DNA from: Planctomycetota bacterium
GTDB taxonomy: Bacteria > Planctomycetota > Phycisphaerae > UBA1845
Direction: 5' to 3'
Assembly (NCBI GenBank): GCA_038043045.1
Contig: JBBTCX010000166.1
Location: forward strand, 1-58,871
DNA length: 58,871 nucleotides
Shown here: positions 27,671-58,847 of the stretch, piece after piece
How positions within the stretch are numbered: the first letter of the stretch is position 1
Layout of the letters: each line of letters starts with the position of its first letter
The notes under the pieces: model-generated
The model's input: only the letters and a program-made list of their open reading frames with translations
Database searches by the model: none
What the model was told of the DNA's origin: nothing
Position numbers and translations under genes: made by a program

Positions 27671-29101
27671 CTAGTATCGATAATGCGGCGATTTGTAAGG
27701 GCCGTCGACCGAAACGCCAATATACTCGGCTTGGTCAGGACGTAACTTCGTAAGTCTTACACCCAGTTTGTCCAAATGCAGACGCGCGACTTTTTCATCC
27801 AAGTGCTTTGGAAGCGTGTAGACTTTTTTCTCGTATTTTAAGCCGTTTTGAAACAATTCCATTTGGGCGAGAACCTGGTTCGTAAAGCTATTGCTCATCA
27901 CAAAACTCGGATGCCCCGTCGCACAACCAAGGTTGACCAGCCGCCCCTCGGCCAACAAAAGAATTGCATGACCATCCGGGTACACCCACTTATCCACTTG
28001 GGGTTTAATATTTTCCTTCTTGATCCCCGACGTCTTCTTTAGACCGGCCATGTCGACCTCGTTATCGAAGTGACCGATGTTGCAGACGATCGCCAGATGT
28101 TTCATCTTGGCCATGTCCGACGCGAGGATGATGTCCTTGTTGCCTGTTGCGGTCACGAAGATGTCGGCGGTACGTACCACGTCGTCGAGTGTTTTGACTT
28201 CATACCCTTCCATGCACGCCTGCAACGCGCAGATCGGATCCACCTCTGTGATCACCACGCGACATCCTTGGCCCCGCAAGCTTTGTGCCGATCCTTTCCC
28301 AACGTCGCCAAACCCGCAAACGACGGCCACCTTGCCAGAGAGCATGACGTCCGTCGCCCGCATGATCGCATCGACGAGAGAATGTCGGCAGCCGTATATG
28401 TTGTCGAATTTACTCTTGGTCACGCTGTCGTTGACGTTGATCGCAGGGAACAACAGCGTGCCCGCCTCTTGACGTTGATAGAGACGGCGAACACCCGTAG
28501 TCGTTTCCTCGCTGACGCCCACGATTTTTTCGGCCATTCGATGCCACTTTTGCGGATCGTCTTGAATCTCATCGCGCAACAGCTCGAGGATGAGTTCCAG
28601 CTCTTCGTTATTCCGCGCGGTCTTGGGATCGGGCAGCGCACGACTTTTCGCAAACGTGTTTTCCGCCTCATAGCCCATGTGGATCAACAGCGTGGCATCT
28701 CCGCCGTCGTCGACAATGACATTGGGTCCGCCTTCCGGGAAATCCAATGCCCGTGCCGTGCACCACCAATACTCCTGTAGGGTCTCTCCCTTCCAGGCAA
28801 AAACCGGAATCCCCGCTTCCGCAATCGCTGCGGCCGCATGGTCCTGCGTGCTGAAAATATTGCAGCTACACCATCGCACCTCGGCACCGAGCTCCACCAG
28901 TGTTTCGATCAACACCGCTGTCTGAATGGTCATGTGCAAGGACCCGGTAATCCGCGCGCCCTTGAGCGGTTTTTTCCCGGCATATTGCTCGCGGAGGGCC
29001 ATCAATCCCGGCATCTCGTGCTCGGCCAGGATAATCTCCTTCCGACCATACTCGGCGAGTCCGAGGTCCGATACCTTAAAGTCCTGTACGACCGTTGTCA
29101 T
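27671..29101 (-). CDS. ahcY: Adenosylhomocysteinase
   Basis: [53 protein letters not shown] and [14 protein letters not shown]. Start set to ATG 29101 (SD GGAG upstream), giving 476 aa. Confidence 0.97.
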
Positions 29102-29251
29102 TGGCTTCTCCGTTTGAACGGGGTTTCTTAACCACAGATTCCATATCGACCGCTGGGGTTTGGCCATGAAACGGACCAAACCCGATTGCACTTCTCGCTT
29201 CGTCTCAAGGATTAGCGGGCCTTGATGACCGTCCCCCTTCATTCCGGGCAA

Positions 29252-29318
29252 CTGAACTGCGAAGGCCTCGAACCTTCGAATCGCTGATTCAGAGTCAGCT
29301 ACCGCCAAGTGAATTCCA
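29252..29318 (-). ncRNA. tRNA-Gln(CUG)-like element with a defective D-arm, in the ahcY leader
   Basis: Anticodon arm GCTGA-CTCTGAA-TCAGC, 5-nt variable region GATTC, T arm GAAGG-TTCGAGG-CCTTC. The acceptor stem is imperfect and there is no canonical D-arm. Confidence 0.5.
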
Positions 29319-29341
29319 CGCGAGTAGCCCGGTTTTGTCAA
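29313..29341 (-). promoter_or_regulatory. Candidate sigma70 promoter for ahcY
   Basis: TTGACA (29341-29336), 17 nt, TGGAAT (29318-29313). The -35 is perfect, but the -10 lacks the conserved second-position A. Confidence 0.45.
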
Positions 29342-29499
29342 CTACCTCCAGCATTTTTCGCAGCAGTCAGAATTTGGACCCAACGAATGATGGCCCCAAT
29401 CTCGCCGTCGTCGTTGCGGCATCGGGAAGCTTGACCTGATCCCCGCAATGGGTCCGGTCCTTGTTCCTTCAGGACTTCTTCAATGGATGGGGCAACAGT

Positions 29500-31500
29500 C
29501 TACGGACATGGACCCTGAGGCAGCGGCGACCCGATCATGCGAGAATAAGTTCCCGCGCCATTGAGCAAGTCCAACAGGCGAAGAAGATCGAGCGCGTTCG
29601 TTACTCCGCTGTGATCCATATCAAGCTGGTAGAGTGTGGCACTTGAACACGTTTGGGTGTGCGAAAATTGCTCCATGCAATCGACAGCCACGATGACATC
29701 GAGGGCATTAACGACGGAATCACCGTTTACATTTCCGGAATGAAAAATAAACGTGCCCTCGGATCCATCTCCTTCGTAGGTCAGGGTAGTCGCCGCCGAA
29801 GGAGTAATCGCACGGTCAAGTATAATCGTGTAGATGCCCAGTGGTCCTTCAAACACAGCCGCAATACCGTTAGCAAATCCATCGACGCGGGTCTCGCATA
29901 GCGTGAAGCATTCATCGTCCGCGCCTGACGGAGCTTGGACCGTGAGCACTTGGATTCCTTGTCGCGGAACGAAATCCACAATAGGGTGTGGTTGGCGAGC
30001 ATCGATGACGCCGTCCGGCGGATCCATGAAGATCACGCCACCTTTCTGTGGACAAAAAGGAGCGCGGCATGGCGGTTCAAATGGATCTGGCGTGCAAGCG
30101 CGATTAAAGGACCATCTGCCGGAGCATTGGTTTCGCAATTCGTCGTCGCTGCATTGGAACAAATCGCCGTCGCAGCAGGCCCCGCGCGCGGATTCACCGT
30201 AGCAAAAAACTCGTGATCGGAAGCTCCCGGCCGGGGTGCATCCGGTGCCGCCAGGGCAATTGGTCGGGGAAAATCCTCCAAAGTTTAGACCAGGCTCCCA
30301 TGTCCCCGTGTTTCGGGCATAGCCATCTTCGCTGGAGCCGACTTCTCCAAGACCGGCGGTCACCGGCCCCGAACTTCCCGTTGTCGTGGAAACCACGATC
30401 CAGAATTTAGCGGGAAGGACGGTCCCAGAGGGAAACGTCGGAGTGGCCAAGCGCTGGGTGTGCTGGTCGGACTGAATTCCGGCAAACGCCGCACGTGTTC
30501 CGGGAATGGGTAGAGCGGGTCGGTCGTCGATGGAGATGACGCCGTCTGGTCCCGGATCGTTTGTCCAAAGCTCTAATGTGGCACCGAATGAGGGCGTGCC
30601 GAGAGTTCCGGTGACCGACAACTCGTACTGGGCCAATTCGCAAGGGAGGGCCCCGGTGGAAAGACGAATATCGTCCGCGACTTGCGTGCTGAAAACGATG
30701 GGAAGAAAAGTACCGGTAAGAAAACGATTGTCGAAACCGAGATAGGTTGGCTCGCACGGATTCGGCGAACACGTGCTCCCGGTTCCTCGCCAAATTCCGG
30801 AACATTCGGATTCCGAGATCTCTTGACATGCTTCGTCGTTGCAGCACGCCCCTTTTGGTGGCGGTGGCAAATCGCATTCGAGCGTTGCCCAGAATCCGGA
30901 ATAAGGAAACGGAGGGCCCGGTCCGAAAAAGAAAAGGGAACACAGATTCGTAGCCGTACGCTCTAATGAAAAGAAATTGCCGGTGTGTCCGGTTTCGGCT
31001 TCTTCCGCGATGACCCAGCCGCTGGTGCTTGTGGAAAAGCCCACGCGCATCCAAACGATACCGGGAACGACTACCGGGTCGGTGAAGGATTGCCTAAGCG
31101 TCTGAGGTGAACCATTGGCCGGAAGGTCGGGCCAGTCTGATTCCGTTCCCGTGATCAGAACTCCGCCATTGCACGGGTCGCCATTCCACAGTTCCACATG
31201 TACGTCAAACATCCCGCCGCCGGTGCCCGCAACCAACAACTCGTAGGAGACCATTTCGCAACCGAACGGCTCTGTCGTGGTCAGATCGTCCGAAAGTATA
31301 ACTCCGAGTCCAGGAGCGCTAAAAAGTCCAGCGAATGTACGGGTATTCTCGTATACGATCGTACCGTTAAGAGTGCCGGCGATGACGGGTGTGGGTGCAT
31401 GACGGTATTCGCCGGTCGAAAGGGTGATCGCATCCTGTGCGATGCCATCGGCACAAATCATGGCGCAAAGCGCATGGAATAAGCATCGTCGGATATCCAA
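29500..31500 (-). CDS. Secreted Cys-rich repeat protein with a C-terminal dockerin-like module
   Basis: TTG start with GAGGGG upstream. Two internal units (SDDLTTTEPFGCEMVSYELLVAGT and ADDIRLSTGALPCELAQYELSVTGT) are each followed by a GACC...C...C motif. Tail GNVNGDSVVNALD...DMDHSGVTNALD. Confidence 0.8.
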   Translation of the reverse strand: MDIRRCLFHALCAMICADGIAQDAITLSTGEYRHAPTPVIAGTLNGTIVYENTRTFAGLFSAPGLGVILSDDLTTTEPFGCEMVSYELLVAGTGGGMFDVHVELWNGDPCNGGVLITGTESDWPDLPANGSPQTLRQSFTDPVVVPGIVWMRVGFSTSTSGWVIAEEAETGHTGNFFSLERTATNLCSLFFFGPGPPFPYSGFWATLECDLPPPPKGACCNDEACQEISESECSGIWRGTGSTCSPNPCEPTYLGFDNRFLTGTFLPIVFSTQVADDIRLSTGALPCELAQYELSVTGTLGTPSFGATLELWTNDPGPDGVISIDDRPALPIPGTRAAFAGIQSDQHTQRLATPTFPSGTVLPAKFWIVVSTTTGSSGPVTAGLGEVGSSEDGYARNTGTWEPGLNFGGFSPTNCPGGTGCTPAGSFRSRVFCYGESARGACCDGDLFQCSDDELRNQCSGRWSFNRACTPDPFEPPCRAPFCPQKGGVIFMDPPDGVIDARQPHPIVDFVPRQGIQVLTVQAPSGADDECFTLCETRVDGFANGIAAVFEGPLGIYTIILDRAITPSAATTLTYEGDGSEGTFIFHSGNVNGDSVVNALDVIVAVDCMEQFSHTQTCSSATLYQLDMDHSGVTNALDLLRLLDLLNGAGTYSRMIGSPLPQGPCP

Positions 31501-48604: not shown

Positions 48605-48848
48605 GCGATAACCCTCACAATCATCTGGATGAACCCGAACCCAACCCGAATAACTTCAGAATTCAGAACCGCTTCGCCTTTGCGGTTATTGGGGAGTATC
48701 GACTGGGTAAGGGATTCGCTGAACTAGGAGGAGTAAATTCAGCATTCGCTGCTGGGAGATTCGCGAGATTGAAGGGGTAACCACGGATTCAAATCATCGA
48801 TTCCGTACTATGTTCTCAAGAGTAGAGGTTTGTTGTTCGATGCCCAAT

Positions 48849-58772: not shown

Positions 58773-58847
58773 CGGGGCGTGGCGCAGTCCGGCTAGCGCG
58801 CCTGCTTTGGGAGCAGGAGGTCGCAGGTTCGAATCCTGTCGCCCCGA
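58773..58847 (+). tRNA. tRNA-Pro (anticodon TGG), CCA not encoded
   Basis: Acceptor CGGGGCG/CGCCCCG, anticodon arm CCTGC-TTTGGGA-GCAGG, T arm GCAGG-TTCGAAT-CCTGT. Confidence 0.96.

Follow-up and report, generated by a model that had tools for sequence, protein, structure and literature searches.

Organization of the region upstream of ahcY

The window (the whole 58,871-nt stretch of DNA that was analysed, contig C166 of a 379-contig assembly of a groundwater planctomycete) carries ahcY, the gene for S-adenosyl-L-homocysteine hydrolase, on its minus strand. The encoded protein is 79% identical to those of relatives. Upstream of the gene lie its leader, a tRNA-like piece, a short block with promoter-like hexamers, and the 3' end of a gene for a secreted protein (Table 1). 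Read along the minus strand, the order is TTGACA (29341-29336), a 17-nt spacer, TGGAAT (29318-29313), TCACTTGGCGGT and then the tRNA-like piece, with the ahcY start following about 150 nt beyond it.

Table 1. Coordinates and supporting evidence for the features around the ahcY start
Feature	Position	Strand	Evidence or remarks
ahcY, S-adenosyl-L-homocysteine hydrolase, 476 aa	27671..29101	-	PF05221 3.3e-148, PF00670 2.5e-83
Remaining ahcY leader	29102..29252	-	one stable hairpin; SD GGAGAAG before ATG at 29101
Putative displaced tRNA-Lys(CUU) 3' fragment (positions 26-73)	29253..29300	-	42/48 identity; C26 paralogue
Probable decayed integrase C-terminal tail remnant	29301..29439	+	DNA and protein similarity to tails
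Promoter-like TTGACA-17-TGGAAT	29313..29341	-	inside the antisense tail remnant (codons ..EFH..VLST..)
Cys-rich secreted protein, dockerin-type C-terminal module, 666 aa	29500..31500	-	PF00404 8.7e-6

The tRNA-like piece contains an anticodon arm with a perfect stem, GCTGA-CTCTGAA-TCAGC (29299-29283), a 5-nt variable loop, GATTC (29282-29278), and a T arm, also with a perfect stem, GAAGG-TTCGAGG-CCTTC (29277-29261), followed by GCAGTTC-A (29260-29253). An earlier note on this DNA had described the two arms and the loop between them, and all are present as described on the minus strand at 29299-29261. The note had further interpreted the piece as a mimic of tRNA-Gln(CUG) with too short a D region, set in a highly structured ahcY leader.

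Identity of the tRNA-like piece

ARAGORN called no tRNA gene at the element. An Rfam search of the window likewise returned nothing at gathering score, and relaxing the threshold to E ≤ 10 for the 800-nt region 28900-29700 brought up no match either. The 5' third of a tRNA, comprising the acceptor 5' strand and the D arm, is missing from the element, which explains why the D region had seemed too short, and the sequence 5' of tRNA position 26 holds no complement to GCAGTTC. A canonical tRNA gene was therefore rejected, as the full cloverleaf is lacking and neither program reported a tRNA.

Searched with the element, the DNA of 40 relatives gave only matches of 50-54 nt, in three genomes (G001, G002 and G009) and at E-values of 3e-11 to 3e-12; ARAGORN identified all of them as genuine tRNA-Lys(CTT) genes. 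The window piece aligns without gaps to tRNA-Lys(CTT) of G001 and G009 over tRNA positions 26-73, with 42 of 48 positions identical. Its local alignment score is 36 against tRNA-Lys(CTT), compared with 19, in a gapped alignment, against the genome's own tRNA-Gln(CTG). One of the six substitutions, T36->G at 29290, turns the anticodon CTT into CTG. Given the 42/48 match, the apparent CUG anticodon is thus a single substitution in a lysine tRNA fragment. By alignment, then, the piece derives from tRNA-Lys(CUU), and the identity as tRNA-Gln was discarded, since tRNA-Gln(CTG) aligns far worse and a paralogue described below retains CTT. The fragment comprises the anticodon arm, the variable loop, the T arm, the 3' acceptor strand and the discriminator A. 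All six substitutions fall outside the 20 stem positions (chance about 0.03, calculated post hoc), a distribution that could hint at selection on both hairpins.

Related copies in the same genome

A paralogue of the region was found at C26:16-143 in the same assembly, with 87.5% identity to the window over 128 nt. Junction and hexamers recur there, and the match extends for a further 35 nt upstream, about 80 nt of upstream flank being common to the two copies. The tRNA part of the paralogue is identical to real tRNA-Lys at 49 of 49 positions, its anticodon still being CTT. Its downstream flank is unrelated to that of the window, and the gene there is convergent, so that the C26 copy is not a leader. 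Differences between the two copies number 6 in 51 positions of the tRNA part and 10 in 77 of the flank; neutral decay would be expected to give such equal divergence. Judged from the alignment, the junction is common to the window and its paralogue, and the hexamers are conserved in C26 by common descent. The promoter part of the earlier proposal loses its footing here, as the same hexamers stand in C26 with no downstream gene in the same direction.

A further relative of the distal part of the upstream block lies at C123:317-391 (81% identity over 75 nt, E 1.4e-13). What follows the block there, in place of the tRNA-Lys piece, is a 3' fragment of tRNA-Arg(CCU), which matches at 98% over 52 nt.

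A pattern scan for the Lys-type junction gave no match in the genome collection, and in the metagenome collection it gave only the sequence of C26 itself, in a sample of Hainich groundwater. Metagenome contigs that match C26 branch at the tRNA core, and the contig could not be extended. Groundwater metagenome contigs across the window junction have low coverage and include no variant free of it. The tail block at C26:1-55 also occurs in another contig from the same sample, one that is roughly five-fold more abundant and continues differently, with GAGCGTTCGTAAGTCGTTTTCTTTTCAACA, the junction type of the other elements. Its recurrence suggests that related elements circulate in the community.

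An antisense integrase tail next to the fragment

The plus strand of the upstream block holds an open frame from 29260 to 29436, with a stop at 29437-29439. Its first 16 residues are the tRNA part read antisense, and 43 residues follow. At the protein level, 18 of 30 residues are identical to the tail at C123 (E 9e-9), and the frame also aligns with the tails found at six other orphan tRNA fragments and with the C-terminus of the integrase L047. These alignments identify the flank of the fragment as a homologue of the integrase tails at other tRNA fragments. The remnant lacks the conserved tail end AWxxLPExIRARI, the last 20 or so codons being gone. Among the small ORFs on both strands of the block, we found no conserved frame except the antisense tail frame.

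The promoter candidate of the earlier note lies within this remnant. The TTGACA-17-TGGAAT sequence is indeed present, but a sigma-70 promoter scan did not call the pair, because TGGAAT has no A at position 2, and both hexamers are reverse complements of codons within the tail. It is very likely, jointly with the reading of the whole region given below, that they are chance words in an antisense tail remnant.

On the former element side, the truncated remnant borders on the dockerin-type gene, many of whose paralogues end at the same point. Past the TAG of this ORF, the minus-strand frame stays open for 53 codons (29338-29502), up to a TGA inside TTGACA. We considered the block as a C-terminus of the dockerin-type protein reached by read-through of the TAG, and rejected this since all paralogues stop at the TAG position; the open frame looks like a coincidence.

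A family of tRNA-targeting elements with an apparently split integrase gene

The genome contains 24 matches to PF00589 (tyrosine integrase), many of them adjoining tRNA genes. Blasting all 48 of its tRNAs against the genome yielded at least 12 orphan tRNA 3' fragments, which start at tRNA positions of about 18-37, mostly 21-30, and all reach the 3' end. Two elements, of about 7 kb each, lie whole on one contig. One consists of tRNA-Lys(UUU) (C251:41215-41286), an integrase and a fragment at 48747-48798; the other of tRNA-Ser(UGA) (C101:64174-64262), an integrase and a fragment at 57025-56960. Loci of the family in this genome include C251:41215-48798, C101:56960-64429, C173:43808-45238, C123:255-495, C21:2153-2382, C183:3963-4014 and others.

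An antisense open frame crosses each fragment and runs into a conserved tail, ..VSDExxTxYE....DPELQAVISAWPGLPEAIRARIVGLVEGA, that ends in a stop codon. This passage from core to tail was seen at the attR of C251, C101, C21 and C183, while at the attL of C251, C101, C173, C229 and C102 the reading frame of the integrase passes through the tRNA, in the frame seen at attR. The same frame through the core at both ends places the attachment site within the 3' portion of the gene for the integrase, so that integration would split the tail from the body and the excised form would encode a longer integrase.

The tail is about 65 aa long, with the motif ..DPxLxxVIxAWPxLPEAIRARI.., and in this genome it stands antisense beside six or more further orphan 3' fragments of tRNA genes. 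In ORF L047 of genome G208 it is joined to a PF00589 domain (5.9e-21). Of the 301 genomes of the class that were sampled, 141 have it, for the most part as short frames beside antisense tRNA sequence. Rfam reported no tRNA-like core in the tail region of the intact integrase L047, whose element may insert at a different site.

In the tRNA-Lys(UUU) element, a frameshift divides the integrase into two PF00589 pieces (C251:41300-42800, minus strand), and this element is therefore probably immobile. At the very end of the window's contig lies a tRNA-Pro(UGG) (58773-58847), and a 31-nt copy of its 3' end is found at C169:6561-6591. This copy sits at a contig end as well, probably at another element junction that broke the assembly.

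The ahcY leader

We compared the ahcY upstream regions of 15 relatives from the same genus, family and order, the earlier note having named absence of the element from orthologous leaders as grounds for refuting its proposal. The tRNA-like element is absent from all 15, and the only matches in the 40 relatives searched are the genuine tRNA-Lys genes. A conserved cis-regulatory ahcY leader was rejected on these grounds. The leader portion between the fragment and the gene (29102-29252) has no second copy in the genome.

Of the two hairpins that the earlier note had placed downstream of the arms, both are predicted, but only one folds better than shuffled sequence. The hairpin at 29156-29183 (minus strand; GGGTTTGG-TCCGTTTCATGG-CCAAACCC) has z = -2.74, with 3 of 200 shuffles folding equally well, and is the only tested part of the leader to beat its shuffles. 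The hairpin at 29202-29229 has z = -0.09, the tRNA-like piece -1.25 and the 150-nt remainder -0.77. The whole 214-nt leader (z = -1.12) folds like shuffled sequence, at odds with the description of a highly structured leader. The hairpin at 29156-29183 is unique in the genome and has no T-run after it. The earlier note had seen no SAH or SAM-I riboswitch; in agreement, the Rfam models for SAH and SAM riboswitches gave no match at gathering score in the window and none at E ≤ 10 in 28900-29700.

At the ahcY loci of relatives (L010-L018, L031, L032), the gene is in most cases directly preceded by the 3' end of a methyltransferase gene (..MQDRWWGF..ELFV..). A search of this genome gave no orthologue of the methyltransferase at E 1e-10, indicating that the usual methyltransferase-ahcY linkage is broken here. 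The neighbours of ahcY in G001 map to other contigs of this assembly, and synteny allows no island boundary to be drawn.

A decayed attachment-site junction and the alternatives to it

We consider it highly probable that 29253-29439 is a decayed junction of the attR type, in which a displaced tRNA-Lys(CUU) fragment meets the end of an integrative element that encodes the integrase tail. In the proposed course of events, the integrase gene of the element would run antisense over its own attachment site, a copy of the last 50 or so nucleotides of the tRNA. Recombination with the chromosomal tRNA would rebuild the tRNA beside the integrase body at attL, and the displaced 3' piece would end up at the far end, attR, joined to integrase-tail DNA. 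The junction in the window would then have decayed through about 12% drift, a stop codon in the tail and loss of the tail's end. The truncated element side would now meet the 3' end of the dockerin-type gene, with ahcY on the former chromosomal side. The perfect arms would be an inheritance from the tRNA. We infer the integration event, the later loss of the element and a present lack of function.

The 58.9-kb contig has no PF00589 match anywhere, and the 379-contig assembly contains no intact tRNA-Lys(CUU). The assembly is also without a tRNA-Thr(UGU), so a missing tRNA gene means little there. The locus orthologous to the tRNA-Lys(CUU) gene of G001 falls where C242 begins, at a break between contigs. 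None of the relatives has a tRNA-Lys(CUU) beside ahcY, so one must assume either an additional rearrangement or a second tRNA-Lys gene that has since been lost. No GC or compositional boundary was detected at the junction. Such scars would mark old points of rearrangement.

The junction might have been put to use after it formed, with TTGACA-17-TGGAAT driving ahcY and the tRNA-derived hairpins working in a functional 5' UTR through stability, processing or protein binding. The hexamers stand about 205 nt before the ATG, at a sensible spacing and with no other promoter-like site called; both stems are perfect despite the six substitutions; and synteny upstream of ahcY is broken, so that the ahcY promoter must come from new sequence. 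We nevertheless regard such use as unlikely, as none of the 15 relatives' leaders examined carries the element, C26 keeps the hexamers equally well without a co-oriented downstream gene, the -10 hexamer is poor, the tRNA part has diverged as much as its flank, and the piece folds no better than its shuffles. It also has neither acceptor stem nor D arm, which most tRNA-modifying and processing enzymes require. The extreme form of this idea is the suggestion of the earlier note that the piece acts as a decoy substrate of a SAM-dependent tRNA methylase and so ties ahcY expression to methylation potential; the tRNA-Lys origin and the absence from all 15 relatives' leaders speak against it. A domesticated version, in which a chance promoter in the dead tail drives ahcY and the tRNA-Lys hairpins serve as a handle for a tRNA-binding enzyme or RNase, strikes us as very unlikely. 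If true, it would be a case of a housekeeping-gene leader made from an att site.

Similarly unlikely is a junction that is still usable, namely the live right end of an island of more than 29 kb that holds the dockerin-type protein and toxin and lipoprotein cassettes, its tRNA-Lys(CUU) and integrase end lying off the contig. The orientation would fit, with the element side toward 29500 and beyond and the chromosomal side toward ahcY. The genes on the element side look accessory, and the assembly both lacks a tRNA-Lys(CUU) and breaks at such repeats. Against a live end stand the six substitutions in the 48-nt core, one of them in the anticodon loop, which is where the crossover is placed at 'anticodon-centred' sites (Islander, PMC4383910). 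In addition, the truncated tail runs straight into an unrelated gene, there is no integrase within 29 kb, the composition does not change at the junction, and C26, with its perfect core, is the better candidate for a current attR. The earlier note had offered a decayed tRNA gene as its plainer alternative. This came close to the mark, in that a 3' two-thirds fragment fused to integrase-tail sequence amounts to an integration scar: the DNA is that of a decayed tRNA gene, but not of an entire gene whose 5' end was removed by mutation. The latter, a complete tRNA-Lys(CUU) before ahcY that lost its 5' third locally and without any mobile element, we judge extremely unlikely. It would account for a decayed piece derived from tRNA-Lys, and faint D-loop similarity (TCAnTTGGT) is seen ahead of the identity block in C26. 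However, the same non-tRNA junction with some 80 nt of upstream sequence recurs at a second locus whose downstream flank differs, the upstream stretch is itself homologous to the integrase tails beside other tRNA fragments, and the break point falls within the range in which other orphan fragments start.

Relation to known systems

The decayed attR-type junction resembles the tRNA fragments described for genomic islands. According to Islander (Hudson, Lau & Williams 2015, PMC4383910), integration regenerates the tRNA and leaves a displaced fragment, which is the 3' fragment in 3760 of 3919 islands. The window fragment likewise reaches the tRNA 3' end, ending at the discriminator base, as Islander asks of displaced tDNA, and element-derived DNA precedes it on its inner side. 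Its start 5' of the anticodon stem resembles the anticodon-centred attP class. The genome itself has many integrase and tRNA pairs with matching fragments, and the C251 and C101 elements show the full arrangement of tRNA, integrase and fragment. Unlike in those islands, the contig carries neither the partner tRNA nor the integrase, and the assembly as a whole lacks the tRNA. The window fragment has also drifted (87.5% identity), and its present place is the leader of a housekeeping gene.

The integrases of Mx8 and SSV extend across attP (PMC4383910). For IntP/IntX of the myxophage Mx8, the account of Tojo et al. 1996 as cited in PMC4383910 is that the gene spans attP and that integration alters the C-terminus. 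In the Phycisphaerae family, the integrase frame similarly runs antisense through the tRNA core at attL and from core to tail at attR. One frame through body, core and tail, as in Mx8 IntP, is thus found in the parent family, the excised form not being observed in this genome. SSV-type archaeal integrases are likewise said to be encoded by genes that span attP and to have their C-terminus altered on integration. The planctomycete family differs from both in apparently being a separate family, to judge from its own tail motif, AWPxLPEAIRARI. To our knowledge, a layout like that of Mx8 and SSV has not been described for planctomycetes.

Functional tRNA-like elements do occur in bacterial RNAs, among them the tRNA-like domain of tmRNA, the YrlA Y-RNA module and the tRNA-binding T-box leaders. 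The window piece resembles these in offering a T arm with a TTCGA loop and an anticodon-like hairpin in a possible transcript. It differs in having no acceptor stem, no conservation at orthologous loci and no Rfam match, and recombination would explain its origin. In our best reading, the scar is an ordinary feature of a known kind and not a regulatory RNA, exaptation as an ahcY promoter or leader keeping a small probability, and the ahcY of this groundwater planctomycete gives no sign of a new riboregulator. Half-tRNAs with perfect arms near housekeeping genes should first be compared with the tRNAs of relatives and with integrase-end sequences.

A more notable by-product than the ahcY scar itself is the family of integrases that span attP. 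This genome and many other Phycisphaerae carry prolific tRNA-targeting elements, whose attP-spanning integrase gene sheds a conserved C-terminal tail on integration. Elsewhere in the genome, at C325:16836-16920, ARAGORN called an 85-nt tRNA-Ile with the anticodon TAT, unusual in both isoacceptor and length.
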